Source: Solirubrobacterales bacterium
Lineage (GTDB): Bacteria; Actinomycetota; Thermoleophilia; Solirubrobacterales; 70-9
Assembly (NCBI GenBank): GCA_035264245.1
Contig: DATFQO010000049.1
Coordinates: forward strand, 1,731-65,730
DNA length: 64,000 bases
Direction of reading: 5' to 3'
The notes below the pieces were generated by a model, which saw only the letters and a list, made by a program, of their open reading frames with translations, ran no database searches and was not told the origin of the DNA. Shown in pieces: positions 45,670 to 63,218 of the stretch (position 1 is its first letter; each line of letters opens with the position of its first letter). The position numbers were made by a program, and so were the translations under genes.

Positions 45670-48600
45670 CAGTATTCCCATCCATTCGGGTCGATTTCGA
45701 ATCCTTCGAGGGTTTCGGGGCTATAAGTGACTTCGCCGGCTTCGTCGGCGACCGGTTCGATCATCACTACTTCGCCGCCGACAAGATTGCCGTTAACGTC
45801 GGTTTCCGCATCCAGCTGCACGATCAGGGTCGTCACCTCGGTGGCCGCAGCTTTCATTTCTGCTTCCAGGTACGTGCCCTCCGCGTAGTAGCTCGGATCC
45901 TCCAAGTCATAGCCAATCACGGGCCATACCCTGTCCTCCCAGTCATGGGGGGTGACCATCGCCACCGTTGCGGTGACACCCACTAGGTTGGTCGTTTGAG
46001 TGGCCGTCGTCTCCGTCCAGGGCCCAACGGTCATCGCGTAGTTGTCACCCTGGATCGCCGACTGGAAGGCTGGGTCGGCCGCGATCAGCGTCTGCGCTTC
46101 TTCAACCTGTTCTTCGGTCAGTGTGGGCGCTGGATCGGTGAGCTCCAAGGCCGGCTCTCCGCTCTCCGGCGTGGCCGAAATGTCCGGCGTGCTGAGCGCC
46201 AAGTCGGTCTGCGTGCCGGAATCGAAGCTCGTGCCGACGGCCGCGCAGTCCGCTGCCGCTGGACATGAAATCGCACTCAGCTTGCTGTTAGGGGTGCTGA
46301 TGCCGTTAGCTCGGTTAGGGGTCGGCTCCACGTACCAGCCTGTTCCGTTCCAGCTCATCGCCAGCGTGTGGAAACCAGAAGCTTCTTTCGCTTGGTAATG
46401 CCCCACCGCCACACACCGGCCCTGGCCGAAGCAGGAAACATCGCTGAGGTAGGTGGCCGTTGCGTTTTCAGGAGCTGGGATGGCCAATTGGTTCCAGCTG
46501 GTTCCGTTCCAACTCACCGACAACGGGTAGGAAGACACCCCGATCGTGTATTGACCGACCGCTTTGCAGCTGGTGTTGGACTGACAGTCCACCCCCATCA
46601 CTTCGGTCCCGGCACTCGCCGGCGCATCCGCTACCGTCACCACGGACCAGACAGTCCCGTTCCATCGCTCGCCCAGTGGCCGCTTTACCCCGCTGGCGTC
46701 CTTGTAGGTGCCGACCGCCATACAGCTGTTCGAGGCCGGACAGGACACGTCTTCCAACCAGGCCTGGGTCGCACCGGCCGGAAGTGGGGCAGTCTGCGTG
46801 GACCACGACGTGCCATTCCAGACCTCGATCAGGACTACGGCTTTGGAGGCGCTCGTGTATCTGCCTACAGCTACGCAGCTGTTGCTCGACGGGCATGACA
46901 GCCCAGCGAGAGAATGCGCACTTCCCGTGGGGTTCGGCGTGGGCAGTACGGACCACTGGATCCCATCCCAACGCTCTGCCAACGTGCCCGCGGCCTGAGA
47001 TCCGACGGCAGTGCAGGAGCTCAGGCTCGCGCATGCGACGTCGAGGAGCGAGCCTTCCCGAACACCGGGCATCGCCTGTGCCGTCCAGCCGGAGTCTTCG
47101 AGCTGCCACGCCACCTCCGTTCGATCCGCTAGGCCGGATTCGATCCTGCCCACGGCCATGCAGCCCGCCTGAAGGCAGGTGATTCCTGCAAGGCCTGACA
47201 TCTCCCCTCGGTTGTCAAGCTCGGCGCCCCAGATCTGAACCAGGGCTCGTTTCTGGACTTTTTCGTCGCTGAAGTTGCCCACCGCCAAACAGGGCGAGGT
47301 GGAGCCCCCGTAGGTTCCGCAAGAGACGCCCTGCGGACTCGCCCCGCTGAATGGGTACGGTTCCTCGACCGTGCTATTGGCCCACGCCGTCCCGTTCCAC
47401 GCCTGAATCAGCTCCGTGAGCGGGATGCCAGACACCTGGGACACGCCGACTGCCACGCAGGACGTGGATGACGTGCAGGTGACGTCCCTCAGTTCACTTC
47501 CGTATCCGCTGAGACCGTTCGGAGTGCCTACGGTCGTCCACACCGTCCCGTTCCAGATCACTCCGCGCGTTTTTCGTTCCGTGCTGATCGTGTCGTAGCC
47601 GACTGCGGCGCACCAAGTCGTAGACGTACAGGCGACACCTGTGAGGGCGCTTCCTTTCGATTCGCTGTTGATCGGAATAGCCACCGCCGACCAGGAAGTC
47701 CCATTCCATTTCATCGCGAGGTTCTTGGCGGTGGATTCCGTATAGGTGCCAGTCGCCATACAGAAGTTTGTTGCGGTACAGGAGACGGCTTGGAGTTCGC
47801 TGGGAACCGTGCTACCGCCAGGGGCCGGAGTCGCCACAACGGACCACGCCGATCCATTCCAGCTCATCGCGAGGGTCTTTTTCACGCCGGAAAGGGTGTA
47901 ATCGCCGACCGCGGTGCAGGAAATGGCGGAGACACAAGCCACTCCCGTCAGCTCGCTTGCCGTCGCCCCTGCCGGCGAGGGCACTGAAGCGATGGACCAC
48001 GCCGTACCGTTCCATTCCATCGCCAGTGATTTCTTTACACCCGAAGAGGTGTAATTACCAACGGCCGTGCAGCCGGTCGCGCTTGAACAATGGACGTCCA
48101 CCAGCTCGGTTGCTGACGCACCGGCGGGTTTGGGGGTGCTGGCAATGGTCCAGTCGCCGGGGTACCCCGTTGCGGAAAACGGCCCAGCCGCCCCCGATAC
48201 GGTGGCCTTACCCACCGCCACGCAGCTCGCGGAAGCGAAGCAGAAGACATCACGCAGTTCGCCGCTGGATGCCCCGCTTGGTTCGGCTGAGGAATCGACA
48301 GCCCAGGTTGCGCCCGACCAATTCGCCACGATGACCCGGCGGGTCGCCCAGTTGTCGAGGTGATCGCCGATTGCCATGCAGCCAGTTCCCGAGAGACAGG
48401 CGATCGATCGCAGGCTCCATTCATCGGTTTTTGCAGGCTCGGGAGCCCGGCCCAGAGTCCAAGCTCCACCGGTGCCGTTGAGCACCAGTCCCTGACGGTG
48501 CCCGGCCTCGTCGGCGTACTCCCCTACCGCAACGCAGGCGGAGGGGGAGATGCAGTCGACCCCGAAGAGCTTCGTCCACCGCGATTCGCCCGGACTCGGC

Positions 48601-50561
48601 AACGAGATGGCGGACCAGGACGTCCCACCGCTCCAGCGGAGGTTGAGGCCATGAACGATGCCTGACGGGTCCCGGTAGCTGCCTACGGTCGAGCAGAAGG
48701 TGGGGCCAGCGCAGCTGATTCCGGTGAGGGCGGTACCCAGTGCACCAGTTGGCTCCGCCGGAAGCGAGGCGATCGACCACGCCGAGCCATTCCAATCGAG
48801 AGCCAGCTGATGGGTGGTGTTGCCGTCTTCGAAGATGCCAACCGCCTTGCAAAGGGCGGTGCTCGTGCAGGACACGTCTTGTAGCGATACACCGACGGCG
48901 CCGCTCACGGTGGGAGTCGACGCGATCGACCATGCGGTGCCGTTCCAGCTCATCGCCAAGGCGCGCTTTTCCCCTCCCGAATCGACATAGCGCCCAACCG
49001 CCGCACAGGAACCGGTGACGCACGAGACCCCGGACAGATGGCTGGCCAGCGAACCGCTCGGAGCGGGAGTCGTCCCGCTGGACCAGGCGGTTCCATTCCA
49101 GGTGACGCTGAGAGAACGTTCGCTTCCGGTCGAATCGAGGTAGACACCGACCGCGACGCAGTCGGAGGTGCTGCGGCAAGCCACACCCTCGAGGGCGGTC
49201 GATTTGGCACCAGCGGGAAAGGGGACATATTGCGCAGCCCAGGTAAATCCGGTCCAGCGCTGTATGAAAGCCCGTTCCACGTCCCTGCCGCGCTGGTAGG
49301 TGCCGACCCGAATGCACCACGAGAGTGAGGCGCAGGCAAGTCCCATCCTTTCGGCAGCACCGCTCTGCCCCGGAGACTGGTCCGACCAGGTCCGCTCGTA
49401 GCCGCCTGCTTCGGTCAGAGCCCACCCCGTCCCGTCGTATCTGAGGGCGAGGTTGCGATTGGCGGCGACATGGCCGTAAACAATTGACCCGCTGGCGTGA
49501 CAGAACGTTTGCGTTAAACATGCGACAGCGGTCAAATCGCTCCCGACCGCACCGACGCTCGAGATGTCCACGGACTGCAGGCTCCAGGAGGTTCCATTCC
49601 ACCACAGCGCATGCGGAAGATCGTCCTGCCCTTTGTGGAAGGTACCTACCGCGGAGCAGACCGAGGCAGAGCTGCAGGAGATTGCTTTGAGCTGGCTGCT
49701 GGTCCCGGACGGCTCCGGCGCCGACATGATCGTCCAAGTGCTGCCGAGCCACTGCACCGCGAAAGACTTCTGGATTCCGACGGAATCGAAATAGCTACCT
49801 ACTGCCTTGCAGTTGTTGGTAAGGCACGAGACTCCGGACAGGGACCCGAAGGTCGCGCCACTGGGTATCGGGATTGAGCTGGTTGACCAGGAGGTGCCGT
49901 TCCACGAGAGTGCCAGTGGTTTCGTTACCCCCGTTGAATCGGCGTAGTTCCCAACCGCAAAGCATGAGGTCGCACTGGAGCAGGAAATCGAGCTCAGATC
50001 GTTCGATTTGGAACCGCCGATGTTCGGCGAGGAGGCGACGCTCCATGAGCCTCCGTTGAAACTGATTGCGAGCGTCTGTCGAGCATTGGACGAGTTCACG
50101 TACGTCCCAACCGCCTTACAGGCCGAAGCGGAGGTACAAGCGAGGTCCGTAAGCCAGCTTGCCTTCGTACCGCTGGGCTCGGAAACAGTGGAGACCGTCC
50201 ATGCGGAGCCGTTCCATGCCATAGCCAGAGCGTGTTTCACGTTCATGCCATCGGTAGCGCTCCCAACCGCGAAGCAGGTGCTTGCCCCGGGGCAAGCAAC
50301 GCCCGAGAGAGAGCTGAGGCTGGCCCCGTCCGGCACCGGAGTGGTCTGCCTGGCCCACACCGTGCCATTCCACGCTGCGGCCTGCACCTGACTCGTCCCG
50401 ATCACATCGGAGCCTCCCACGGCAATGCAACTACTTGACGACGGGCAGGCCATATCCGCGAAATCACTCGTGGCGGATGCGGCGGCGGGTGCGAAGAGCA
50501 GCAACAGACCCAGGACCAACGCCAGTCGAGCAGTCCAGACCGTCTTTTGACCTGGGTTCAT
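45669..50561 (-). CDS. giant secreted repeat protein (1630 aa, about 27 repeats of ~48 aa)
   Basis: ATG at 50561 gives MNPGQKTVWTARLALVLGLLLLFAPAAASA. Repeat consensus L.gVSC.S...C.AVG.Y......k.LA..WNGT.WS....P.P.G. Non-repetitive acidic ~170-aa C-terminal domain. Confidence 0.85.
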   Translation of the reverse strand: MNPGQKTVWTARLALVLGLLLLFAPAAASATSDFADMACPSSSSCIAVGGSDVIGTSQVQAAAWNGTVWARQTTPVPDGASLSSLSGVACPGASTCFAVGSATDGMNVKHALAMAWNGSAWTVSTVSEPSGTKASWLTDLACTSASACKAVGTYVNSSNARQTLAISFNGGSWSVASSPNIGGSKSNDLSSISCSSATSCFAVGNYADSTGVTKPLALSWNGTSWSTSSIPIPSGATFGSLSGVSCLTNNCKAVGSYFDSVGIQKSFAVQWLGSTWTIMSAPEPSGTSSQLKAISCSSASVCSAVGTFHKGQDDLPHALWWNGTSWSLQSVDISSVGAVGSDLTAVACLTQTFCHASGSIVYGHVAANRNLALRYDGTGWALTEAGGYERTWSDQSPGQSGAAERMGLACASLSWCIRVGTYQRGRDVERAFIQRWTGFTWAAQYVPFPAGAKSTALEGVACRSTSDCVAVGVYLDSTGSERSLSVTWNGTAWSSGTTPAPSGSLASHLSGVSCVTGSCAAVGRYVDSGGEKRALAMSWNGTAWSIASTPTVSGAVGVSLQDVSCTSTALCKAVGIFEDGNTTHQLALDWNGSAWSIASLPAEPTGALGTALTGISCAGPTFCSTVGSYRDPSGIVHGLNLRWSGGTSWSAISLPSPGESRWTKLFGVDCISPSACVAVGEYADEAGHRQGLVLNGTGGAWTLGRAPEPAKTDEWSLRSIACLSGTGCMAIGDHLDNWATRRVIVANWSGATWAVDSSAEPSGASSGELRDVFCFASASCVAVGKATVSGAAGPFSATGYPGDWTIASTPKPAGASATELVDVHCSSATGCTAVGNYTSSGVKKSLAMEWNGTAWSIASVPSPAGATASELTGVACVSAISCTAVGDYTLSGVKKTLAMSWNGSAWSVVATPAPGGSTVPSELQAVSCTATNFCMATGTYTESTAKNLAMKWNGTSWSAVAIPINSESKGSALTGVACTSTTWCAAVGYDTISTERKTRGVIWNGTVWTTVGTPNGLSGYGSELRDVTCTSSTSCVAVGVSQVSGIPLTELIQAWNGTAWANSTVEEPYPFSGASPQGVSCGTYGGSTSPCLAVGNFSDEKVQKRALVQIWGAELDNRGEMSGLAGITCLQAGCMAVGRIESGLADRTEVAWQLEDSGWTAQAMPGVREGSLLDVACASLSSCTAVGSQAAGTLAERWDGIQWSVLPTPNPTGSAHSLAGLSCPSSNSCVAVGRYTSASKAVVLIEVWNGTSWSTQTAPLPAGATQAWLEDVSCPASNSCMAVGTYKDASGVKRPLGERWNGTVWSVVTVADAPASAGTEVMGVDCQSNTSCKAVGQYTIGVSSYPLSVSWNGTSWNQLAIPAPENATATYLSDVSCFGQGRCVAVGHYQAKEASGFHTLAMSWNGTGWYVEPTPNRANGISTPNSKLSAISCPAAADCAAVGTSFDSGTQTDLALSTPDISATPESGEPALELTDPAPTLTEEQVEEAQTLIAADPAFQSAIQGDNYAMTVGPWTETTATQTTNLVGVTATVAMVTPHDWEDRVWPVIGYDLEDPSYYAEGTYLEAEMKAAATEVTTLIVQLDAETDVNGNLVGGEVVMIEPVADEAGEVTYSPETLEGFEIDPNGWEY

Positions 50562-50827
50562 CTCAGCACCAGACGTCGCATCATGACCCTCCGAAATGCA
50601 CACTTGCAACTCATTGGCGAAGCCCCCCTGCGAACCAGACGCATTTGCATCGTTGGCGAGATTGATAGACAAACACATGTTCTTGTGAAGGAAGGAACAT
50701 GGTTTTAGTTACGGGATCTATACCACAAATCTAGATCCAGCTCTAACTCGGGTCCGATCACCGCCAAGCAGGGAAGGGTCGACTTGGCTCACACGCTACG
50801 GCGGCCCACGGAAACCGTGATCTATCC

Positions 50828-51037: not shown

Positions 51038-51823
51038 CTATCCGCGCGCGCGGCAGCTGCGGATCAAGGTGGAGCTGAGGGTCTTGCCACCGTCGAAGCC
51101 GAAGCTCGTCCGCGCAAGGGGGAAGACGGCGCTCGAAAAGCCGGCGGGGGCAGGACAGCCGGCGAGGAGGTAGCTGCGGCTGCGGCCGCCGGCGCGGAAG
51201 CTGCGACCCAGGGTGAGCTGGATGCCGGTGACGAAGCCGGCCTGGCCGGTGACTTGCGGCAGCGAGGCGCTCAACGTGGTCGCAAAGGTGCCCTTGGCGT
51301 GGCCGATGAACAGGGGCAGCGTGTAGGAGGTGGGAACGGGGTCGGTGCCGTAGACGTGGGCAAAGATCACCGGGCGGCCGCCTTCGACGCCGTTGAAGGC
51401 GATCACCTTGCCGCGCGAGGGGAAGGGAGCCTGGCCGGGGATCGCGACGTTGGCGGAGAAGCGGCCTTCCCCCACCTTCGCGCCGCGGCAGGCCGCCAAC
51501 GCCTTCTGGGTCGTGGAGGGCTGGATCTGTTCGAGCCTGCAGGCGGGGAGGCCCTGGCGGTCGATGCGGCCCTCGCGGTTGATCGCGATCTCGATGCGAC
51601 GAAGCTGCGGCGGTTCGGAGCCGTCGGCGGTGGTGATCCTGCCGCCGATGCGGACGGTGACCGGGCGGGTGCCCTGGCGGGGCAGCTCGTGGGGAGTCAG
51701 CTGGCCGTCGAACTTCACCCGCAGACCACCCTGTTGGGCGGTCTCCGCCTCAGAGGCCGCGGCGAAGGCGGCGAGCCCCGCAAAGGCGACAAGGCCCGCG
51801 AGCTTGAGCGAGCGCAGCCTCAT
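51038..51823 (-). CDS. secreted protein C1 (single Cys-pair module, unknown family)
   Basis: ATG at 51823 forms an ATGA overlap with the B1 stop. Signal peptide MRLRSLKLAGLVAFAGLAAFAAASEA. Clear paralogue of 63225-63998. Confidence 0.75.
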   Translation of the reverse strand: MRLRSLKLAGLVAFAGLAAFAAASEAETAQQGGLRVKFDGQLTPHELPRQGTRPVTVRIGGRITTADGSEPPQLRRIEIAINREGRIDRQGLPACRLEQIQPSTTQKALAACRGAKVGEGRFSANVAIPGQAPFPSRGKVIAFNGVEGGRPVIFAHVYGTDPVPTSYTLPLFIGHAKGTFATTLSASLPQVTGQAGFVTGIQLTLGRSFRAGGRSRSYLLAGCPAPAGFSSAVFPLARTSFGFDGGKTLSSTLIRSCRARG

Positions 51824-54729
51824 CGCCGCCCGCGCTTTCGCTTGTGCTGCTTGTGCTTGGCGCATTTGACGGCGATCGGCGGCGCCGATATCGCGGTGGA
51901 GTTGTCGTGGGCGATGAAGCGGGCGCTGGCCAGTTGCGGGGCGGAGCAGAGGTTCTCGGAGTTGACGAGCAGGCCGTGCTTACCGCCGGCGAGGTTCATG
52001 GTGAACTTCGTGACGGGGGCATCAGGCAGGAGTTCGAAGGTTCCGCGCAGGCCGCCCCCCCGCGCCCTGTCGATCCGGCCCACGACTTCGACCTCGAAGC
52101 CCTGGCCGGAGAGATAGGCGACCACGTCAGGTAACAGGTTGGTCGAGGAGCGCAGGTAGACGGGGCCGCTGAGCGGTTCGGCGAGCAGTGGAGTGAGAGC
52201 TCTGGCGTAGCCGATTCGCGAGTTGGCTGGACAGGTCTTGGCCCGGAAGCGTGGCATCGTGCAGACCTGGCCGATGTGCTCCTGGGCCAAGAAGACCGAG
52301 TTCGGCAGGCTGACTGCAACTGACTTCAGGTTGGGGTCGCCGGGGCGGGGCGTGTAGGTGGCTTTCAGGGCCGGGTAGCGCCCCCGCTTCGTGCCACCCT
52401 TCAGCTTCAGGTGCAGCCTCGGCTTGAAGATGAACCCGGAGCAGTCGCTGAGCTGGAAGCGATCGCTGCTGGTAGTGGCGGGGTCGTCGGCAGGGCTGTA
52501 GAGATCCAGGCCGGCGCCGGTCAGGGTCGAGATGGTCGTGAGCGGGTCGCAGTTGGTCGGGTTGAGCGTGAAGTCGGGGCGATCGACGTCGACGCGGATA
52601 TCGCGCAGGTGGATCGGGATGCCCCTGATGATGTGGGGGATCGGATCTGAGCCGGCGGAGTCGATCGAGGCTTGCGCGCTGCGGGGGTCGATGCGGATCG
52701 CCGAGCGCACCACGACCACTCCGAGGTCGAAGGGACCGACAACGGCCGAGTCGATCGCAACCGTGGAGAGTTGGGCGCCGTGGTAGGGGCCGGCGAGGTA
52801 GAGGGCACCGGGGGCATATGCGAGGGTCCCCCCCACTCCGTAGCCGGCGAGGGTGGTGCCGATTCGGCTGGAGGCGGGGCAGCTGGGCCCCGCCAGCTCT
52901 TCGGCGCCGCCGTGGATTCCGGTGCGGGCCCGGGCGGCGGCGATCGCGGAGTCGGGGCAGACCCCGACCCCGGCCAGCTTCGCCAGGAGGCCCGGTGGGA
53001 AGGTGGCCGAGTAGGAGGTGATCTCCTGCTCGGCGTCGGTGCGGGTCATGCGCAGCTCGAAGGGCGAGTAGAAGCCGGCGGTGGGATTGAGCGAGCCTGC
53101 CTCCAGGCCCGGGTGGAAAGGCGGCAGGCCCGGGGGCGGGCACTCGCCGCCGTCGGCGCCGCGGTTGATCGGGAAGCTGGAGAAGCTCTCGAGGCGAAGG
53201 CCCGGGTCTGACCAGGGCCAGTAGTGCAACTGGGCGATGTGGGCGCCGCAGGTCGGTGGGGAGACCATCGCCGCGCGCTGGCCTTCGCGCAGGTTCAAGG
53301 TGAAGAGGTCGTAGTGGATCGGGGGCAGGTCTTCGAAGCTGACCACCAAGCGCCCGGTGGCGGGGTCGGGCTCGGCCTTGCCAAAGGACTTGAAGTAGAG
53401 ACCGCGGCGCGGCGAGGAGAGGGTGATGTAGAGCGCTATCAGGTTCTTGGCGGGGTTGGCGAAGGGGGTGGCGAGGAAGACCGAGCCTTTGAGGACTGCG
53501 GGAAGGCCTAGCAAGCCGTTGACAGAGACGGTGCCGATCTTCGAGTTGTTGGGGCAACCCGAACCCGGGAGCGAGGTGGCGCTCTCACGGACGAACTCGG
53601 CTTCGGAGCAGGTTCCGAGACCGGCGCCGAGGGACGGGTTGATGCTGAGCCCTTCGGGCAGGAGGGCGCTGACCCGTTGGATCGGCGAGCGGACCCGGCC
53701 GTTGACGTTGAGAAAGCCACCGCCGTCGTTGACGTTCAGCTCGAAGGCGATGCCGGTGGCCGCGGCGGCGCGATCGGTGAGCAGACGCAGCCTCGGGATC
53801 GCCAACACCTCGATGCAGTCGCTGACGGTGAGCGGGTCACCGCCGCTATCGCGGGAGAGGACGTTCCTGTGCTCCGCGCCGCCCTGCCAAGAGCTGACCG
53901 CCGCGCCCCATTGCAGCTGCCCGCCGCAGGTGGTGGGCAGGGTCAGGTAGGAATGGATGTGGTCGAGCGAAAGCGAGATGAAACAGGTGCCCGCGTGGAA
54001 TTCCGGGTCAGTGCTTGGATAGCGCCGCTCGATCCCGTCTTTCCAGTAGGAGGCCTCACCGTTGAAGTCGGCCGGGCTCACCTCGTTGAGGCAGTTGCCG
54101 CGTTCGACGTCGTATTTGTATTCCCACGGGGTGCCCCAGAGGGTGAGGTCGAGCGACTGGATGTTCAGCGCCTGAGTGAGGTTCTTGAGCTCGAAGTCGA
54201 GGGTGGCTTGGTCGCTGCGGTAGCGCCCGGCGAGGATCACCGGCACCCCGAAGGGGGCGAAGCCGATCGCCTCGGCGCTGCCGAAGGGTGCGGCGAGGTT
54301 GAAGAGGCCGAAGTGGCGGGTCGTGCCGCCGGCGCCGCCGGTGTGGACGGCGACGACGCCGATCTGGCTGGAGCCGGGACAGCTCTCCCCGGAGAGGCTC
54401 GCTTCGTAGGGAGAAGAGCGCCGGGTGACGAACTCACCGGCGGAGCACTCGTCGAGGGCGGCAGGGTTGGCGATCACACCGGCGGGGAGGGTAAGCCGGA
54501 GGTCGCGCAGGTCACCGTCGCTGTAATCGCCGGCCGTGTTGAGGGCAAGGTGGACCTGAAGCAGGTCAGGATGGGTGCCGGCGCCGCTCACCGGCGCGCC
54601 TTCACGCTCGATCGCGACGTCGAAGCCTTCAGGGCCTGGGAGCAGGCCAAAATCGGCGCTGGCGCTGGCCGGGGCGATAACCACCAGGCCCAGCGCGGCC
54701 AGGGCCAGCCACAGCGCCGGGTGCCTCAT
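51820..54729 (-). CDS. large secreted protein B1 (four Cys-pair modules, polybasic C-terminal tail, unknown family)
   Basis: ATG at 54729 forms an ATGA overlap with the A1 stop. Signal peptide MRHPALWLALAALGLVVIAPASASA. Paralogue of B2. Tail KCAKHKQHKRKRGRR. Confidence 0.8.
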   Translation of the reverse strand: MRHPALWLALAALGLVVIAPASASADFGLLPGPEGFDVAIEREGAPVSGAGTHPDLLQVHLALNTAGDYSDGDLRDLRLTLPAGVIANPAALDECSAGEFVTRRSSPYEASLSGESCPGSSQIGVVAVHTGGAGGTTRHFGLFNLAAPFGSAEAIGFAPFGVPVILAGRYRSDQATLDFELKNLTQALNIQSLDLTLWGTPWEYKYDVERGNCLNEVSPADFNGEASYWKDGIERRYPSTDPEFHAGTCFISLSLDHIHSYLTLPTTCGGQLQWGAAVSSWQGGAEHRNVLSRDSGGDPLTVSDCIEVLAIPRLRLLTDRAAAATGIAFELNVNDGGGFLNVNGRVRSPIQRVSALLPEGLSINPSLGAGLGTCSEAEFVRESATSLPGSGCPNNSKIGTVSVNGLLGLPAVLKGSVFLATPFANPAKNLIALYITLSSPRRGLYFKSFGKAEPDPATGRLVVSFEDLPPIHYDLFTLNLREGQRAAMVSPPTCGAHIAQLHYWPWSDPGLRLESFSSFPINRGADGGECPPPGLPPFHPGLEAGSLNPTAGFYSPFELRMTRTDAEQEITSYSATFPPGLLAKLAGVGVCPDSAIAAARARTGIHGGAEELAGPSCPASSRIGTTLAGYGVGGTLAYAPGALYLAGPYHGAQLSTVAIDSAVVGPFDLGVVVVRSAIRIDPRSAQASIDSAGSDPIPHIIRGIPIHLRDIRVDVDRPDFTLNPTNCDPLTTISTLTGAGLDLYSPADDPATTSSDRFQLSDCSGFIFKPRLHLKLKGGTKRGRYPALKATYTPRPGDPNLKSVAVSLPNSVFLAQEHIGQVCTMPRFRAKTCPANSRIGYARALTPLLAEPLSGPVYLRSSTNLLPDVVAYLSGQGFEVEVVGRIDRARGGGLRGTFELLPDAPVTKFTMNLAGGKHGLLVNSENLCSAPQLASARFIAHDNSTAISAPPIAVKCAKHKQHKRKRGRR

Positions 54730-56327
54730 CGCCCCGCCTTCGCGCGTTCGGAGCGCCCGCCCTCGTGCCGGTGGTGGGCACGGTGGTGGCGGCGCTTGCA
54801 CCCCTTGTGCTTGCGCCTCTGCTTGTGTGGCTTGCAGTTGCGAGGGAAGCTGACCGCGCGATTGCCGAGCCCCGGCAGCGAGGCGGTGGGCGGAGGTTCA
54901 TAGTCGGGCACCGGTGAGGGGCCCTGGCAGTCATCGCCGAAGCAGACCTGGGCTTCGGGTTCGGGGAAGCCACCGCCGACGCGGGCGTCATAGAGGTCGA
55001 GGGCGGCGTCGGGGTCCCGGGGCAGCAGCGGGGCACTGGTGACGAAGTAGGCATCGTCGCCCGAGGCACTGGCGCCGGCGAAGGCAGCGCCGCCGAGGCG
55101 CCCGTCAGAGATCAGAGCGAGGCAGCCGCCCGCCTGCACGCAGGTGCCCCGGCCCCCCGCCTCCCACTCATAGACGTCGGCGCTGCCGTCGGTGTCGTGG
55201 AAGAGGAGCGCGGCGGGCGAGGTGAAGAAGAAGCGGGCGCCGTCGGCGCTGGCCTGGGCACGTCCGCTCGCCGGCGGGAGGGTCGAAGGCCCAGTGGCGA
55301 GGAGCCGGGTTGAGGCACCGGCGGCAAAGCGGTGCAGGCCGTTGCTGGTGACGTAGTAGATGACGCCACCGTCGTCAGAGAGGCCGATGACGGCGAGTGC
55401 CCCGCCTGCGGAGGTGAGGTCGCTGAGGGCTTCGCTCGTCGCCTGGTAGCGGTACAGGTGTTCGCCCTGGATGAAGTAGGCCCGGGAACCGTCTCGAGAG
55501 GCAGTCTGGAAAGAGGCACCGGCGGCAACCAGGCGGCTGCCGCCGCCTTCGCGCAGGTGCAGGTTGCCGGCGAGGGTCCAGTAGACGCGCGAGCCGTCGG
55601 CGGAGACGGCGCCGGGCCCGCTGGCGAGGGCGGCGCCGGGGTCGGAGCTGATGACTTCGACGAAGCCCTCGCTCCACTCATAGAGGCTGCCCTCGGCGGA
55701 GAAGACGACGTGGTGCAGGTCGGGGCTGGCGCCTTCGAAGGCGAGCTGGAAGTCCTGAGGTTCGCTCGGCAGACTCGGAAAGGTGCTGGTGACGAGCGGC
55801 GTGAAGGTGTCGGCCTCCCGCAGGTAGAGGTTGCGGTAGCCCGGCGGAGCCCCAGGGGCCAGCGGTGGGTTCTCCACCGCGCAGGAGCCAGAGCCGTCGC
55901 GACAGCGCCAGCCGTTGTTGAGGATCGCGCTGCCGAGGTCGGCGGAGAAGAGCTCGTAGGCACCGGCGCTGTAGGTGCCGGAGAGGGCGGAGGGGGTCAC
56001 GTTCTCGCTGCTCCAGCCGGCGGCGCCGCGGGTGGCGAGGTACTGGTTGACCGGCAGTGAGCCGACCGCCTCGCCGAAGGAGGCGGGCGAGCCAAAGGCA
56101 ACTGCTCCGTCCTGCACGCCGGCCTGCAGGACGCCTGTGAAGAAGCTACCCGGCGGCCCGACCACGCCGCCGTTCTTCTCGACCGGGGAGACCAGCTCGA
56201 AGGCGCGGGAATCGAGCCCGCCGGGCGGCCCCGCCGCCGTGGCTGGGCCGGCGAGGGCGAGCAAGGCGGCGGCGCAAAGCGCCGCCGCGATTCCCGCCGC
56301 GCGGGGGTGCCGAGAGCCCGCGCTCAC
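54726..56327 (-). CDS. secreted PD40/TolB-like beta-propeller protein A1 with Cys-containing polybasic tail
   Basis: GTG at 56327 forms a GTGA overlap with the B2 stop. Signal peptide. PD40-like strands (VSADGSRVYWT, ASRDGSRAYF, ASADGARFFFTS, DVYEW). C-terminal LDLYDARVGGGFPEP..C.GDDCQG plus tail. Confidence 0.8.
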   Translation of the reverse strand: MSAGSRHPRAAGIAAALCAAALLALAGPATAAGPPGGLDSRAFELVSPVEKNGGVVGPPGSFFTGVLQAGVQDGAVAFGSPASFGEAVGSLPVNQYLATRGAAGWSSENVTPSALSGTYSAGAYELFSADLGSAILNNGWRCRDGSGSCAVENPPLAPGAPPGYRNLYLREADTFTPLVTSTFPSLPSEPQDFQLAFEGASPDLHHVVFSAEGSLYEWSEGFVEVISSDPGAALASGPGAVSADGSRVYWTLAGNLHLREGGGSRLVAAGASFQTASRDGSRAYFIQGEHLYRYQATSEALSDLTSAGGALAVIGLSDDGGVIYYVTSNGLHRFAAGASTRLLATGPSTLPPASGRAQASADGARFFFTSPAALLFHDTDGSADVYEWEAGGRGTCVQAGGCLALISDGRLGGAAFAGASASGDDAYFVTSAPLLPRDPDAALDLYDARVGGGFPEPEAQVCFGDDCQGPSPVPDYEPPPTASLPGLGNRAVSFPRNCKPHKQRRKHKGCKRRHHRAHHRHEGGRSERAKAGR

Positions 56328-59300
56328 CGCTCCGTGGCGCGCTTGCCCTTGCGGCCCTTACCGCAATCGGCCTTGAGCGCCGGCCTGCTGTCGCCGATCC
56401 TGCCGTTTTGGCCGTCGAACTCGGCGATCGCCCTGTGGGTCGCCGCACAGAGGTCGGCGCTGTTTTCCAACAGGCCCTTCTTGCCACCCTGCATCGAGAG
56501 CACGAACTTCGTGACCGGGGCGTCGGGGACGTCTTCGAACGTGGTGCGGATGCCGCCGTCCATGGAGTCGATCCGACCCACCAGGTTGACGTCGATCTGC
56601 CCGTGCAGGGCAGCCACCAGGTCCGGTAGCGAGTTATCGGAGGAGCGCAGGTAGACCGGGCCGGCAAGCGGGTAATCGAGCAGCGGGCTGGTGGCCCTCG
56701 CCCTGCCGTAGATCGACCGCTTGGGGCAGCCGCCGCCGTTGCCGCCGCCGGCGGCAAACTGGACCCGGGTACAGATGGTGCGGATGTGGCCCTGGGCCAA
56801 GAACTCCGAGTGCGGCAGGGCGACCGAGGCGCGCTCGACATTGGCACCGCCCAGGGGCATCGTCAGGGTCGCCCGCAGCGCCGGGTGCTTGCTGCGGGTC
56901 GTCCCGCCCTCGAGCGCCAGGGTTAGCTTGGGCTTGAAGGCCAGGGCGCCGCAGTCAGAGGCCTGGAAGCGATCGGAGACGTTGGCTACGTCGCCATTGC
57001 TGGCTTCGATGGCGGCCCTGACCGCTTGCGGTTCGCAGCTGGTCGGGTTGAGGGTGAAGCCGGGCCGATCGACCAGCACTCGCAGGTCGCGGTAGGAGAC
57101 CGGGATGCCGCCATAGATCTGGGGCAGCGGGTCCGAGAGGACCGTGGCCTGGGTGGTGGTGGGATTGATCTGGAGGGCCGAGCGCACCGCAACCGTGCCG
57201 AGGTCGAAGGGACCGGCCTGGGCGGGTACCGAGGCGATGACGCTGTAGGGGGCGGATTTGTAGGGGCCGGCCAGGTAGACGGCGCTGGGGGCCTTCCCCG
57301 GTTGGGGCAGGAAGAGCGGTAGGGAGCCCTCGCCGATACCGGTCTGCACGCTGCCGATGCGGCTGGCAGCCGGACAGGCCAGGGCTGCCGCCTCGGCATC
57401 GGAGCAGACGCCGACGCCGGCGAGCTTTGCCAGCTCGCCCTCGGGCAGGGTGGCGTCGATGCGGGAGATGTTGGGTTGGCCGGAGTCGCGGGTGACCCGC
57501 AGGAGGAGGGGCGAGAAGGCGCCCGCCTTGGAATCGGTGACGCCCGCCCGGAAGCCGGGCGCGAAGCCAGGTGCATTGCAGCCCTGGTCGACGCTGATGC
57601 CGGGTGCGAGCTTGACCGTCTTGCCGTTCCAGCCGGTCAGGGTTGCTTGGGCGGCGTAGGTGCCGCAGGCCTGCGGCGTCGTCAGCGGCGCCCGCGGACC
57701 GGTCTTCAGTTGCATATGCATCGATTCGAAGGGCAGCTGCGGCAGGTCTTCGAACGTGGTCGTCAGCTGGCCGGTCGTCTTGTTCACCACCAGCGAGCCG
57801 GGCAGTTTCACGTCAACTCCGCGCTCGGCCGAATGCAGGACGATCGCGAGCCGGTACATCTGGCCCGATTCGGGGTCCTGCGAGTTCTGGGTCCGCAGGT
57901 AAACCGAGCCGCCGATCGCTTCGGCGAGCAGCGGCGTGTCGACTTCAACGGAGCCGAGTCTCGAGGCTTCGGGGCACTCCGCAGGCCCCTCGCGCCCAAT
58001 CCGCAGTTGCGCGTCAGTGCAAGTGGCGAGCCCGTCCGCGGCCGCGGGGTTGAGGGAGATGCCCCGGGGCATCTCCAGGGAGACGCTTTTCACGTCGGCA
58101 GTGGCGATTCCGTCAGGCCCACTTCCCTGGGGCAAGGTCAGGTCGACTGCAAGACCACTCGCGCTGTGGGCGGAGCCGTCGGTCGGAGCCAGACTTACGT
58201 GGGGTTCGAAGGGAACACTGTCGCATCCAGTGGTCGCCGGCGTGGTGGCGGATCTCCTATGGAGGATATCCGGGTGCAGGTAAGTATCCATTTCCATCTC
58301 CCACCGCAGCGGTTCGCCGGAGCATGAGGTCGGAAGCCGTAACAACGGAGACTTCGAAGCACTGGAAAGTAGGCACCTTTCGCCGCTGGCGCCAGAAAGA
58401 CCCCGAATGCATTGAGGCCGAAGGTCGTCATGGAAGCTGTCGGCGGGGGTGCCCCAGAAAACGGTCTGGATGCTCGTCAGCTGGTCAGCAGTGGCTGCCC
58501 GGACCGTATAGAGATCCACTCCGTAGTCAGAGGGGCGCAATTTGGCCGGAATGATGACGGGCACTCCCTGGTAGTAGAGCCCAAACTCTGCCGGGACCCC
58601 CGCGGAAGGCACCAAGTTGTACATCGGCGTCAGATCCTTACCATTGAGCAGAGCGTAGCCCACCTGACTGTCATCGGGGCAACTCGGTACCTGATTGTTT
58701 TTGGCGTCAGGGTCGTGATTGGAAAACGACAATTGCCCAGCCGTACACCGCGAGCCGGTGGCCGTGGGATCTCCGACGAATCCAACCGGTAGGTGCGTCG
58801 ACAGGTTGCGGAAGCTCTCAGGCGTTGCAATGAAGGTGAAAGCTGGTTCGAGATCCAGCGGCGTTGCGGCATGGCCATAGAACGAGGCCCTAGCGGACAC
58901 TTCGCGTGGATGGGACCCCGCCTGTGCGGTGGGCAGTTTAGGATTGTCGGCGATCGCCATTTCGAAGGCCTTGAACTGGAAGGGGCCAACAGGACCGGTA
59001 TCGAAGCTGAGCGGATAGGTGGCCGGGTTGGATGCTCCGCCGCCGGTAACCTGGACCTCAGCGTTGAGCGTGCTTTCGGCTCCGGCTTCGACAAACGTAA
59101 GGAGCTTGAAGGTCATCAGGTGATGGGGGGCCATGACGCTGGCGTCAGCGGTGCATTCGACTTCCTGAGCGGATGACGTGCAGACGGTGTTTTCCGGCAA
59201 TGCTTCGGAATCGGCGAACGATGAGGCGAGTCCCTCATCAAACGTGTATCGAAGGGTGAGGGTGCCGCTCATCGCTTCATCGCCTTCATTGTGGATGGCG

Positions 59301-59482
59301 ACTATCATTGCCAACCACTTTCCCGGAGTGACCTGGTCCGGAGAAGATCCGGTGATGCTCAGCACCGGCGCAGCGCTGGCAGCGGAAGCGGCGGCGCCAA
59401 AGGCGCCGATCGCAGCCAGTGCTGCCAGTGCGAACGACACGAGGCGACGCGTGACGCGGTTTTGACGGAAGGGTCGGTTCAT
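56324..59482 (-). CDS. large secreted protein B2 (CARDB-like N-domain plus four Cys-pair modules, polybasic tail)
   Basis: ATG at 59482 is preceded by AAGGAGA and gives the signal peptide MNRPFRQNRVTRRLVSFALAALAAIGAFGAAASAASA. An upstream in-frame ATG at 59545 would make an ATGA overlap with the A2 stop. Tail DCGKGRKGKRATER. Confidence 0.8.
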   Translation of the reverse strand: MNRPFRQNRVTRRLVSFALAALAAIGAFGAAASAASAAPVLSITGSSPDQVTPGKWLAMIVAIHNEGDEAMSGTLTLRYTFDEGLASSFADSEALPENTVCTSSAQEVECTADASVMAPHHLMTFKLLTFVEAGAESTLNAEVQVTGGGASNPATYPLSFDTGPVGPFQFKAFEMAIADNPKLPTAQAGSHPREVSARASFYGHAATPLDLEPAFTFIATPESFRNLSTHLPVGFVGDPTATGSRCTAGQLSFSNHDPDAKNNQVPSCPDDSQVGYALLNGKDLTPMYNLVPSAGVPAEFGLYYQGVPVIIPAKLRPSDYGVDLYTVRAATADQLTSIQTVFWGTPADSFHDDLRPQCIRGLSGASGERCLLSSASKSPLLRLPTSCSGEPLRWEMEMDTYLHPDILHRRSATTPATTGCDSVPFEPHVSLAPTDGSAHSASGLAVDLTLPQGSGPDGIATADVKSVSLEMPRGISLNPAAADGLATCTDAQLRIGREGPAECPEASRLGSVEVDTPLLAEAIGGSVYLRTQNSQDPESGQMYRLAIVLHSAERGVDVKLPGSLVVNKTTGQLTTTFEDLPQLPFESMHMQLKTGPRAPLTTPQACGTYAAQATLTGWNGKTVKLAPGISVDQGCNAPGFAPGFRAGVTDSKAGAFSPLLLRVTRDSGQPNISRIDATLPEGELAKLAGVGVCSDAEAAALACPAASRIGSVQTGIGEGSLPLFLPQPGKAPSAVYLAGPYKSAPYSVIASVPAQAGPFDLGTVAVRSALQINPTTTQATVLSDPLPQIYGGIPVSYRDLRVLVDRPGFTLNPTSCEPQAVRAAIEASNGDVANVSDRFQASDCGALAFKPKLTLALEGGTTRSKHPALRATLTMPLGGANVERASVALPHSEFLAQGHIRTICTRVQFAAGGGNGGGCPKRSIYGRARATSPLLDYPLAGPVYLRSSDNSLPDLVAALHGQIDVNLVGRIDSMDGGIRTTFEDVPDAPVTKFVLSMQGGKKGLLENSADLCAATHRAIAEFDGQNGRIGDSRPALKADCGKGRKGKRATER

Positions 59483-59541
59483 GGAAGGGTCTCCTTGGTC
59501 CAAAGTCGAGAAGCCGGTAGTCAGCGCCTGCTCACGACCCC

Positions 59542-61605
59542 TCATCGAGAGGTCCCGAGGCGGGCGGAGGACTCGCGCTTGCGGCCCGCGCGGTGTTTCT
59601 TGCGCTTCACGCAACGCACCTTTCCGTGCCGCTTGAGATGACGTTGGTTTTTGCCGCAGGGCCTCCGCGGCCTGAGGTTGCCGCGAGCGACGGCCCCCGA
59701 AGCGACGGAAGGGCCGAGGGGCGAAGCAGCGGACCCACCCTGACAGGCTTCGCCGGAGCAGGGGCCGACGGGCGTGCCTCTGGGTTCGTCGAATCCACCG
59801 CCGACGCGGGAGTCGTAGAGGTCGATGAAATCATCGGAGTCGGAGGGGACGAGCCGGGAGCGGGTAACGAAGAAGACATCGTCGCCGCTCTTGCTGGCGT
59901 CGGCGAATTCGCTCGGTTCGCTGCTTACGCCCGAACTGACGAGGCTCAACTGGCCGGTGGGGCCATCGTAGGAGTAGACGTCGGGGACACCGTTGGTGTC
60001 CTGCGGAAGCAAGCTGTTCGCGGTGGTAAAGAAAACACGGCCGTCATCGGTGAGGTAGCGCGAGCGAAAACCGGGGGGTTCGACGCCTCCCGAAGCGGTC
60101 AAGGTGGGAACATAGGCGGCTTCCTCCCGAAATTGGAAAAGTTCACCAGGACAGGTGGTGCAGGTCACCGTTCCGGCGTCGTGGTTATAAAGAAAAAGCT
60201 GCCCTCCTGCAACATATGCAAGCCACTTGCCGTCCGGTGACACTCGAGAGTATCCGGGATTTGCTGAGGCGAGTCTCAATACGCGAGACTTGTAGGCTTC
60301 CTCGGCAACACTTCGAATAAAGGTACTCGTACCCGCCTCCAACACTCTGAGGTCGCCGTTATTCTCCTTGGTGTAGACACGGGTTCCGTCATCGCTCATT
60401 CCGACTAGTGCCCCGGTAGTGCCATCGAAGCTCGTAATCGCGCTGCCGCTGTTGGTCAGCAAAGTGAGGTTCGGTTCGTGCTCGGGGTCTGGGCCGAAGG
60501 TCCAGCGATAGAGGTCTGGGCCACCTGCCGTGTCGCCGGGAAGCAAGGGCGACTCGGTGGTGAAGAAGAGGGTTTCGCCATCCGGGGTCATGCCTTCAAA
60601 ATGGACGTTCTGCGCTTCTTCGGCGAAGGCCGGGTTTTCCGACTCCGATACCAGGACGGTATAGCTGTCGTCCACCCGCAGGAAGACCTGCTTGGGGCCG
60701 AACGCCGGGGCCGAAAAGGGGAGTCGGGAGCCGTCTACCGAGATCCCTCCCCTGTAGCTCTCTGGTTCAAGGGTCGAGCCACCTGGCGGCACCGTGCCGT
60801 CGGGGAGAATGCCGGCGAGATGGATGGTTCCTTCGTCCCAGCTATAGGCGTTTTTACTGGCGTTCGGGTATTCGCCTGGGATCGCGGGGACCAGCTGTCC
60901 CGTTGCCGCGAAGCTGAGATGATGGAGATCGGGGGAGTTGCCCCATCCCTCTTCGGCGAGAAAATTGCCAAAGAAGTACTTGATCGGGTCGCCTTCGCCG
61001 GTCTGAGAACCGGTGACGGACTGCAGTTTGCGATCAGCGGTGTCCTCGATATAGAGGTTCATGCGATCAGGGGTATCGTCGACCGCGTCAGGAAGGTCAT
61101 AGGCGCGCGTTAGGACATGGGACATGTCCTCTGAGAAGACCTCGGTGTAGGTGCCAACCCTGACGAGGTTGGCGTCCGGGTTCCCCCTGGGGGTGAGGGC
61201 GTGAGTCGTCCAGCCGGCCGCGCCACGCTCGGAGAAATAGGTAATGCGCCCTTGTGCACCCGATCCTTCGCTATCGGCGAAGCCGATCCGCGATTCGAAG
61301 GCGGCGGCGTTACCGTCGGCGCCAGCGGTTATTCCGCCATTCTCGGCCACGATGTCACCGCCCCCCTTGTCGGCGGGGGTCACGCGCTCGAAGGCGCGGC
61401 AGCCGCCGACCTGCGTCGCGCGCTGGGCAATCCGGATCGCTTCGTTGGCGCACGCCCCGTCAGCGCCGGCAGGCGGGGCGCCGGCCCCAAGCAGAGATGC
61501 GAAGGCGACGGCGCTGGCAAAAGCCAACAGCGCCCCCAACAGGATCATGCTCCGGTGCGTGCCGGATCGGCCAGCCGTGGCTGCGGAAACGTCCCTTGCC
61601 TTCAA
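59542..61605 (-). CDS. secreted PD40/TolB-like beta-propeller protein A2 with Cys-containing polybasic tail
   Basis: TTG at 61605 is preceded by AAGGAG plus a 6-nt spacer. Signal peptide MILLGALLAFASAVAFASLLGA region. VSPDGKWLAYV and DVYSYDG strands. IDLYDSRVGGGFDEP..CSGEACQG plus tail. Confidence 0.8.
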   Translation of the reverse strand: MKARDVSAATAGRSGTHRSMILLGALLAFASAVAFASLLGAGAPPAGADGACANEAIRIAQRATQVGGCRAFERVTPADKGGGDIVAENGGITAGADGNAAAFESRIGFADSEGSGAQGRITYFSERGAAGWTTHALTPRGNPDANLVRVGTYTEVFSEDMSHVLTRAYDLPDAVDDTPDRMNLYIEDTADRKLQSVTGSQTGEGDPIKYFFGNFLAEEGWGNSPDLHHLSFAATGQLVPAIPGEYPNASKNAYSWDEGTIHLAGILPDGTVPPGGSTLEPESYRGGISVDGSRLPFSAPAFGPKQVFLRVDDSYTVLVSESENPAFAEEAQNVHFEGMTPDGETLFFTTESPLLPGDTAGGPDLYRWTFGPDPEHEPNLTLLTNSGSAITSFDGTTGALVGMSDDGTRVYTKENNGDLRVLEAGTSTFIRSVAEEAYKSRVLRLASANPGYSRVSPDGKWLAYVAGGQLFLYNHDAGTVTCTTCPGELFQFREEAAYVPTLTASGGVEPPGFRSRYLTDDGRVFFTTANSLLPQDTNGVPDVYSYDGPTGQLSLVSSGVSSEPSEFADASKSGDDVFFVTRSRLVPSDSDDFIDLYDSRVGGGFDEPRGTPVGPCSGEACQGGSAASPLGPSVASGAVARGNLRPRRPCGKNQRHLKRHGKVRCVKRKKHRAGRKRESSARLGTSR

Positions 61606-61907: not shown

Positions 61908-63218
61908 TTGGCCGGTTATGTTCCGCCCGAAATGGTCACCACGCCCTGGGGAGACGCGAGCACTCTGCGGGATCGCCGCCTCTCCCCGGGACGGGGCACG
62001 CCGCGCGAGGAGGTATGTCAGAACCAGCGCGAACGGCTCTTCGCAGCGATGGTGGCGGTGACCGCGGAGAAGGGGTACGCCGAGACCTCGGTCGCCGACC
62101 TCGTGGAGCTCTCGGGAGTCTCGAGCCGCAGCTTCTACCAGCACTTCGCGGACAAGGAGGAGTGCTTCCTGGCCGCGATGGACGAGATCCTCGGCGGTGT
62201 GCAGGGGCGGACGACGGTCGCGCTGCAGGGGGACGGCGATCAGCGCAAGCGGGTGGAGGACACCGGGAAGAAGCTGATCGAAACGCTGGCGCTGCAGCCC
62301 GCGGCGGCAAGGCTGTGGCTGGTGGAGTCCTTCTGCGCGGGCGAGCGGGCACAGGCGCGCATGAACCAGGCGCTCGACGGCTTCGCCCCGCTGCTGCAGG
62401 CGGTCCTCGACCAGATCCCCGAGCGGCGGGGGATGCCGCCGCAGCTGACCGAGGCCCTGCTCGGCGGCGTCTCCGGAGTGATCTACGGCCGCCTTGCGAA
62501 CGGGAAGGTCGACTCGGTGCGACGCCTGGCGCCGGCCCTCTCAGAGTGGGCGTTGAGCATCCCGCCACCGCCCCATGCGCTGCGCTCACCGGATCGGCGC
62601 AAGCGGATTCCCGGCACGAACCCGCCGCCCTTCGCCGCGCACGTGCCGGGGGAGCGGATCCTGCGCGGCTTCACCTCGGTGGTCGCGGAAAAGGGGTACG
62701 CGGCGGCGACGATCGCCGACACGGCGGCGGCCGCGTCGATCTCCCAGAACACCTTCTACGCGCACTTCCGTGACAAGGAGGACGCCCTGCATGCCGCCCT
62801 CGACTCCAGCGGCGCCCAGCTCGTCGCGGCGACCCTGCCGGCGGTGCGCCGAGCGCCGCCGTGGCCGGCGGCGCTGCGGGTGGCGCTGGAGGCGGCGTTC
62901 GGCTTCCTTGCCGCCGAGCCGGAGTTCGCACACCTGCGCGCCGTCGAGGTCTACGCGATCGGGCCGGAGGCGGTCGAGCTGCGCAACAGGCAGGGCGGGG
63001 AGATCGTGCAGGTGCTGCGATCGATGGCGGCCGATGCTCCTACCGAGATCGCCCCGATCCCGCTCGAAGCGACTCTGGCGGCGGTCAACTCACTCCTCTA
63101 CCAGTGGGTGCGCCACGAGGGCGCGCGCAGGCTGCCCGAGCTGGTGCCGCTGGCGACCTATCTGGTGTTGGCCCCCCTGATCGGGGCCGAGGAGGCCCAC
63201 GAGACCGCCTGCGGGTGA
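61908..63218 (+). CDS. tandem-duplicated TetR family regulator (two HTH plus ligand domains in one chain)
   Basis: TTG start preceded by GGAGG 5 nt upstream. Two TetR_N signatures: RLFAAMVAVTAEKGYAETSVADLVELSGVSSRSFYQHFADKEECF and ILRGFTSVVAEKGYAAATIADTAAAASISQNTFYAHFRDKEDAL. Confidence 0.85.
   Translation: MAGYVPPEMVTTPWGDASTLRDRRLSPGRGTPREEVCQNQRERLFAAMVAVTAEKGYAETSVADLVELSGVSSRSFYQHFADKEECFLAAMDEILGGVQGRTTVALQGDGDQRKRVEDTGKKLIETLALQPAAARLWLVESFCAGERAQARMNQALDGFAPLLQAVLDQIPERRGMPPQLTEALLGGVSGVIYGRLANGKVDSVRRLAPALSEWALSIPPPPHALRSPDRRKRIPGTNPPPFAAHVPGERILRGFTSVVAEKGYAAATIADTAAAASISQNTFYAHFRDKEDALHAALDSSGAQLVAATLPAVRRAPPWPAALRVALEAAFGFLAAEPEFAHLRAVEVYAIGPEAVELRNRQGGEIVQVLRSMAADAPTEIAPIPLEATLAAVNSLLYQWVRHEGARRLPELVPLATYLVLAPLIGAEEAHETACG

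Follow-up and report, generated by a model that had tools for sequence, protein, structure and literature searches.

Polybasic C-terminal tails on acidic secreted proteins of a Solirubrobacterales gene cluster: a candidate electrostatic tether

Why should secreted proteins of two unrelated families, encoded side by side, end in the same kind of lysine-, arginine- and histidine-rich tail? The question is raised by a 64,000-nucleotide stretch of a metagenome-derived Solirubrobacterales genome (GenBank assembly GCA_035264245.1, contig DATFQO010000049.1, positions 1,731 to 65,730 of the forward strand; hereafter the window), in which a minus-strand operon carries five genes in the order A2-B2-A1-B1-C1 (Table 1). 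A preliminary description of the sequence drew attention to such tails, with embedded cysteines, on the two A and the two B proteins, and offered three possible functions: electrostatic tethering to anionic wall polymers, recognition by a processing or attachment enzyme, and intermolecular disulfide coupling through the tail Cys. The tail is a modular, intrinsically disordered extension of acidic secreted subunits that belong to a Solirubrobacterales-specific gene-cluster system. Of the three functions, electrostatic tethering fits best. With about even confidence, and from sequence evidence, we propose that the tail may be a disordered polycationic tether that holds acidic secreted proteins by charge on an anionic partner.

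The tails themselves were described accurately. The four sequences and their coordinates are exact on the minus strand, and C1 and its paralogue C2 do end in LIRSCRARG and LIRNCRVGG, respectively. Sec-type signal peptides are predicted for all six proteins (A1, A2, B1, B2, C1 and C2), in keeping with the secreted status claimed for the tailed ones, and no hydrophobic segment is present, the highest 12-residue Kyte-Doolittle mean being 0.79 across 144 homologous tails. The tails lie far beyond chance. Against a background in which K, R and H make up about 12% of the residues in the window's proteins, 11 of the last 15 residues of B1 are basic (binomial probability about 6e-8), and the nearest case among about 30 other window genes is a cytoplasmic pyridoxal phosphate (PLP) decarboxylase with 7 of 15. 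When a tail is defined empirically as at least eight K, R or H among the last 15 residues, it is found on 44 of 78 A proteins and 61 of 126 B proteins and on none of 73 C proteins. Among other proteins it is found on six of 199 with a signal peptide, all six being A fragments or further cluster proteins, and on three of 533 without one. The last figure disposes of the concern that such tails are a compositional artefact common on cytoplasmic proteins of this genome. NCBIfam gave no match for the full proteins (E <= 0.01) or for the tails alone (E <= 10), while Pfam found nothing in the tails, its matches (PD40, NHL, FN3, Big_10, Flg_new_2 and CarboxypepD_reg) all falling in the bodies.

What is conserved in the tail is its composition, not its sequence. 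Homologues number more than 1,563 for B1, more than 1,765 for A1 and more than 2,158 for C1; none carries a Pfam domain beyond PD40, and those that are named all come from Solirubrobacterales or Conexibacteraceae, the A and B homologues from metagenome genomes. One homologue, P0001, is 100% identical to B1. Tails are kept in the A and B homologues, the outcome on which the preliminary description had made its proposal depend. Of the best 120 B homologues, five are B-C fusions; the remaining 115 finish with LC-x27-C and then a K/R/H/G tail. Counted from the last Cys, the tail has a median of 13 residues (quartiles 10 and 17; n = 234 B proteins). All of the best 120 A homologues (120/120) carry CxGDxCQ, a Pro-rich stretch of about 25 residues, NPPxxF and then 25-40 basic residues. 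A profile of this A C-terminal module found 1,045 representatives at 50% clustering, some of which are NHL propellers instead of PD40 propellers. Lysine accounts for a fraction of 0.30-0.33 of tail residues, arginine for 0.20-0.24, histidine for 0.12-0.14 and glycine for 10-16%. Asp and Glu together account for at most 0.012 of tail residues, against 0.09-0.115 in the bodies, and V, L, I, M, F, W and Y together for 1-3%. Aligned from the left, B tails are 0.22 identical, compared with 0.19 expected from composition and 0.59 for the bodies; A tails can be aligned only with gaps. Low complexity in K, R and H, the lack of acidic and hydrophobic residues, and a predicted local distance difference test score (pLDDT) of 47 over residues 961-969 of the B1 model place the tails in the class of disordered polycationic tails.

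Could this composition be a nucleotide by-product? The 3' ends of the A and B genes would then be the initiation regions of overlapping downstream genes, whose A/G-rich, unstructured RNA encodes Lys, Arg and Gly. The gene junctions lend this some colour. Of 78 A genes, 66 have a 4-nt stop/start overlap (ATGA or GTGA) with the next gene, and in 39 of these GGAGG occurs no more than 18 nt from the overlapping start; among B genes, 45 of 125 have the overlap. In the window itself, the B2/A1 overlap is GTGA and the A1/B1 and B1/C1 overlaps are ATGA. CGA and AGG codons are also enriched in the tails, and C, the last gene of the operon, is tail-less. However, tails of 25-40 codons far exceed an initiation region, Lys exceeds Arg in them despite a genome of about 70% GC, and the A2 tail stops 60 nt before the B2 start. 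Tails survive in B genes that have no open reading frame (ORF) in the 400 nt that follow them, with a median score of 5.2 compared with 5.0 in coupled genes, and also in fusions that have no internal start codon. Moreover, Glu (GAG/GAA) is nearly absent although its codons are purine-rich, and there is a 7- to 11-fold enrichment of His (CAC); selection thus acts on charge and not on nucleotide content. On codon and amino-acid composition, the downstream-ORF comparison and the fusions, the by-product reading is largely refuted and, for the tail as a whole, scarcely credible. It holds only for the last 3-5 codons, where the terminal [GA]G[RK]R, with CGA or CGG as its last codon, mirrors the Shine-Dalgarno sequence and the ATGA/GTGA overlap. 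Selection on the tail therefore acts at the level of the protein, favouring net positive charge and disfavouring acidic and hydrophobic residues, while the tail sequence otherwise drifts.

The last 18 nt of A and B genes (in the window, for example, 54729-54746 and 56327-56340) show this double use of bases directly: the frequent terminal residues GGRR, RAGR and GAGR encode GGAGG together with the start overlap, so that coding and translation signal share nucleotides. In B2, the final codons hold both GGAG and the GTGA that overlaps the start of A1. At the remaining junction, a gap of 60 nt separates the A2 stop from the B2 start, and GGAG precedes the latter.

The distribution of the tail was surveyed in 79 related loci (1.7 Mb in total), in which genes were called by GC content at third codon positions (GC3). 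Throughout these loci the genes are arranged as A-B-(A-B)-(D)-C beside a TetR neighbour, and the cluster is multi-copy, with several per 2.5-3 Mb genome. A polybasic tail is carried by 141 of the 1,550 coding-like ORFs that reach 150 aa or more: 134 are A or B proteins, two are A/B fragments and five have other folds (NHL with Flg_new_2; NHL with Big and FN3; CarboxypepD_reg/SdrD_B). All five of the latter lie within clusters, downstream of B; every case of the tail falls in an A-B-(D)-C cluster, and none was found on about 700 other proteins in this 1.7 Mb. The observation that unrelated folds share one tail type is thereby borne out and extended, the tail being present on at least five domain architectures.

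Gene fusions provide a further view of the tail. In all five B-C fusions (P0010, P0031, P0056, P0084 and P0095), C has lost its signal peptide, and the polybasic stretch survives as a linker between the last Cys of B and the mature N-terminus of C. The same holds for the D-C fusion P0442 (NHL-propeller-C), and in P0459, a natural NHL-propeller-B fusion, the downstream partner has lost its signal peptide and the polybasic linker is again kept. The tail can thus lie internally and needs no free C-terminus. The fusions imply that the proteins joined in them would associate physically. Four apparent A-B or D-B fusions (P0379, P0407, P0480 and P0426) were not used, their ends being Arg/Pro-rich and out-of-frame-looking.

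Charge is distributed unevenly over the system. Median body charge is -50 for A proteins, whose tails contribute +15 and about four His; -11 for B proteins, with tails of +7; and -22 to -38 for D-like proteins, with tails of +9 to +18. The bodies of C proteins, which have no tail, are at +13. Tail size scales with the negative charge of the protein that carries it: with length removed, tail charge correlates with own body charge (r = -0.41, p = 3e-4 for A; r = -0.31, p = 6e-4 for B). The presence of an upstream A gene had no significant effect on the B tail (p = 0.09). We propose that, after Sec export, the tail would act as a non-covalent electrostatic tether. Its putative partner would most likely be the cell envelope (anionic lipids or wall glycopolymers), with the Pro-rich stretch of A-type proteins serving as a spacer. 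Alternatively, acidic bodies within the system itself might be the partner, and self-assembly would then be driven by the tails. In either case, the His content would make binding pH-dependent.

Several observations weigh against such a tether. The tail is confined to one cluster type and occurs on none of about 190 other signal-peptide proteins. A general wall anchor would be expected to be more widespread, so this restriction argues against one, favours a system-specific partner and keeps the acidic bodies in play. B tails run down to 1-4 residues, and a few B proteins stop at the Cys. The correlation between tail charge and own body charge is modest and its statistics ignore shared ancestry, and tail charge showed no correlation with the body charge of the neighbouring gene product. 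Finally, no tail is present on 13 secreted proteins that are just as acidic but lie outside the system.

Some of these points bear equally on another explanation, namely that the tail compensates charge within its own protein, or aids export or folding (through pI, the isoelectric point, through solubility, or by shielding from wall repulsion in transit), with no specific partner. That tail charge follows the protein's own body and not its neighbour, that the basic C is tail-less and that the sequence is free apart from its composition would all be expected if so. The 13 tail-less acidic proteins count against this explanation too, and the tail offsets only about one third of the charge of A (+15 against -50). 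A disulfide-stapled hairpin with a Pro-rich spacer would also be elaborate for tuning a pI. We consider charge compensation rather unlikely. A role in metal binding, in which His-rich stretches capture Ni, Zn or Cu, appears very improbable. It would draw on the 12-14% of tail residues that are His and on A tails that are His-dominated, such as HHRKRHHRKKHRHH. B tails, however, have a median of 0 His, many tails are His-free, K and R dominate overall, and the free shift among K, R and H fits charge and not metal coordination.

The cysteines call for separate treatment. The tails had been characterised as Cys-containing, and the K/R/H-rich part of that characterisation stands; the Cys is not a property of the tail itself. 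B-family proteins have 18 invariant Cys, the last two of which are 27 residues apart in 215 of 234 proteins, and in B2 Cys1040 lies 27 residues after Cys1012, closing the folded domain. In the AlphaFold2 model of B1, Cys956 falls just after the last beta-strand (951-954), ahead of the drop in pLDDT over 961-969, and probably pairs with Cys928 as a disulfide. The B 'tail Cys' is therefore the invariant last residue of the folded domain, closing the last beta-sandwich. A tails contain no Cys in 104 proteins, two in 77, three in one and never one, the pair usually being spaced by 10 or 14 residues. About 40% of A tails have the 'knuckle' C-x-K-G-x(7-9)-G-K-x-x-C-V, which is dispensable within the family, and the A tail Cys pair is predicted to staple a cationic hairpin or loop. 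C-family proteins have four invariant Cys, one of them near the C-terminus, and mature Cys counts are even in all six window proteins. The Cys of the tails are probably ordinary paired intramolecular disulfides. A free tail Cys available for coupling or lipidation was rejected on this pairing and parity, and the suggestion of intermolecular coupling or tagging through the tail Cys falls with it, the B Cys ending the fold and the A tail Cys never occurring singly.

A different possibility is that the tail is a true sorting or attachment signal, recognised by a dedicated enzyme that then cleaves it or links it covalently (for instance through Lys side chains to the wall), which would make it a new class lacking a transmembrane (TM) helix. 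The tail is C-terminal on Sec-exported proteins with several unrelated folds, A- and D-type proteins share the CxGDxCQ/Pro-rich/NPPxxF module just upstream of it (1,045 representatives), at a genomic GC content of 70% Lys is more strongly enriched than Arg, and an S41 C-terminal processing protease is encoded near the cluster in eight loci. Against this stand the absence of a positional motif (identity 0.22 against 0.19), a tail length that ranges from 1 to more than 40 residues, the toleration of the tail as an internal linker in fusions, the lack of any NCBIfam match and the occurrence of every substrate in a single cluster type. Nor is there a conserved enzyme gene in the clusters: no conserved enzyme family was found within 10 kb of the cluster in the 79 loci, where only TetR regulators recur consistently, and the S41 protease belongs to an ftsE-ftsX-RNase R neighbourhood at one cluster copy only. 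The idea of a recognition tag for a processing or attachment enzyme consequently loses most of its ground, and we judge a dedicated sorting signal improbable. Its most elaborate form is similarly doubtful: here the tail and the CxGDxCQ/Pro-rich/NPPxxF module together would constitute a new TM-less surface-attachment signal in Thermoleophilia, through which a putative enzyme would link the proteins covalently to the wall or to partner subunits, building a lineage-specific surface structure of A, B, D and C.

The genes for S41 protease, FtsE, FtsX and RNase R adjoin one syntenic cluster copy in 8-12 loci (for example, L064 16603-17793, L024 15415-16311, L057 15669-16580 and L025 17826-19439). 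This recurrence is probably ordinary synteny, and S41 is the only nearby candidate for tail processing.

Known tripartite C-terminal signals, of which MYXO-CTERM and related types carry an invariant Cys (PMC11980579; bioRxiv 10.1101/2023.06.07.544157; PMC3237569), offer a first comparison. The LPXTG/sortase, PEP-CTERM/exosortase, PGF-CTERM/archaeosortase, GlyGly-CTERM/rhombosortase and MYXO-CTERM/myxosortase systems resemble the tails in their C-terminal site on many exported folds and in their basic end. They differ in possessing a signature motif and a TM helix, neither of which is present in the tails, and in having a basic part of 2-6 residues, whereas that of the tails is 10-40. The tails further differ in that their Cys are paired in disulfides, an internal position is tolerated and no cognate enzyme was found nearby. 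To our knowledge, a membrane helix is part of all bacterial C-terminal surface-sorting signals catalogued so far.

Returning to the electrostatic tether, positive charge is already known to keep secreted proteins non-covalently on anionic envelope polymers of Gram-positive bacteria, through the GW modules of InlB and Ami and the teichoic-acid-binding domains of the Lactobacillus S-layer protein SlpA (PMC11181022, PMC5993097, PMC10714868; reviewed in PMC5817068). Those are folded, sequence-conserved domains with specific ligand sites, whereas the tails are disordered and of low complexity and have no Pfam match. Pfam recognised no LysM, GW/SH3, SLH, CWB1/2 or WXL wall-binding domain in the tailed proteins. 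A plain polybasic tail is not among the entries of a review of monoderm surface display (PMC5817068), and, for Actinobacteria or Solirubrobacterales, a search of the literature turned up no earlier account of a polybasic or cationic C-terminal anchor. The tails may have their closest functional analogues in Lys-rich polyanion-binding tails such as that of mycobacterial HBHA. In HBHA and in the laminin-binding protein Hlp, a surface-exposed, disordered, Lys-rich C-terminal tail binds polyanions (heparan sulfate and DNA). HBHA differs in having no signal peptide, in its Lys/Ala/Pro repeats with methylated Lys and in being one protein rather than a module on several folds. A polybasic cluster adjoining a Cys mediates electrostatic binding to anionic lipids in eukaryotic membrane-targeting tails such as those of K-Ras4B and MARCKS; there the Cys is lipidated and the proteins are cytosolic, whereas here the Cys is disulfide-bonded and optional and the proteins are exported. 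The A knuckle resembles in shape the short, one-disulfide cationic loops of thanatin, tachyplesin and the anti-LPS (anti-lipopolysaccharide) factor, which bind polyanionic lipids and glycans, but it has no sequence homology to these hairpins and forms part of the tail of a large protein. We know of no catalogued non-covalent wall anchor that is not a folded domain.

In an abundant, uncultured soil lineage, a plain, disordered polycationic tail is thus conserved on thousands of exported proteins with several folds. Should it retain proteins on the cell, it would represent a simpler route to surface retention or assembly. Were this so, surface-retained Solirubrobacterales proteins could be predicted by a cheap sequence rule, and the tail would lend itself to use as a portable display tag. 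The tails also draw attention to a large secreted A-B-(D)-C system, unannotated and multi-copy, whose members in the window are listed in Table 1.

Table 1. Coordinates of the cluster genes, their C-terminal features and adjacent genes in the window.
Feature	Coordinates	Strand	Description
A2	59542-61605	-	Secreted PD40 beta-propeller protein, 687 aa; body charge about -40, last 40 residues +16
A2 C-terminal module	59545-59760	-	CSGEAC motif, Pro/Ser-rich linker, then polybasic tail (59545-59673)
A2 tail	59545-59673	-	Residues 645-687; contains Cys650-x14-Cys665 loop ('knuckle')
B2	56324-59482	-	Secreted multi-beta-sandwich protein, 1052 aa, 20 Cys; ATG start at 59482 behind GGAG
B2 tail DCGKGRKGKRATER	56327-56368	-	Residues 1039-1052; tail proper is the 12 residues after Cys1040 (56327-56362)
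A1	54726-56327	-	Secreted beta-propeller protein, 533 aa; body charge about -26, last 40 residues +14
A1 C-terminal module	54729-54944	-	CFGDDCQ, Pro-rich linker, then polybasic tail (54729-54839)
A1 tail	54729-54839	-	Residues 497-533; contains Cys498/Cys510 pair
B1	51820-54729	-	Secreted protein, 969 aa, 18 invariant Cys
B1 tail KCAKHKQHKRKRGRR	51823-51867	-	Residues 955-969; disordered tail is residues 957-969 (51823-51861)
C1	51038-51823	-	Secreted, two beta-sandwich domains, 261 aa, basic (about +13), without tail; Cys257 near C-terminus
C2	63225-63998	-	C1 paralogue
Regulator	61908-63218	+	Two TetR domains, 436 aa; between C2 and A2

No feature of A, B or C points to an enzyme. For the window's six proteins, Pfam and NCBIfam gave nothing except a weak PD40 repeat in A2. 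The AlphaFold2 model of B1 (mean pLDDT 92) is an all-beta, multi-domain chain of beta-sandwiches, for which Foldseek returned only generic matches (integrin legs, chaperone-usher pilins and a C. diphtheriae surface protein) with template modelling scores (TM-scores) of about 0.13. The two beta-sandwich domains of C1 bear a weak likeness to Gram-positive adhesin and pilin domains in Foldseek, and neither model led to a functional assignment by this route. A profile of C had no significant match among the sequences of solved structures, and hhalign detected no homology between C and B. Besides A, B and C, the clusters include D and further members: NHL propellers, a CarboxypepD_reg protein and FN3 proteins. 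In seven loci (L071 13730-14857 and six others), the gene for a secreted protein that weakly matches the HtaA domain lies about 20 nt from a cluster gene.

The gene encoding the regulator with two TetR domains is convergent with C2 and divergent from A2, and the same layout is found in L002 (13666-14982). A TetR-like family is present in 46 of the 79 related loci. The protein with two TetR domains is probably the regulator of the cluster. C2 is probably the last gene of a further cluster beyond the window edge.

Four further observations concern other genes. Just downstream of C1, a minus-strand gene (45669-50678) encodes a 1669-aa secreted protein with repeats of about 50 aa, 'WNGT.W...C...C.AVG', for which there is no Pfam match; the DNA around it is lower in GC (0.58-0.64). 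At L005 194-1459 (minus strand), four tandem copies of an ORF of about 103 aa, about 327 nt apart, have a hydrophobic N-terminus and identical C-termini. A plus-strand ORF at 3055-3741 in the window has a Cys/Gly-rich C-terminal tail, CSGGGGCSGGGGGCGGGGGS, and likewise no Pfam match. Finally, three minus-strand genes (18296-20548, 20558-23248 and 23280-24803) comprise an extracytoplasmic function (ECF) sigma factor gene and, directly downstream of it, two tandem genes for paralogous secreted GH26-like proteins, the signal peptides of which are near-identical.

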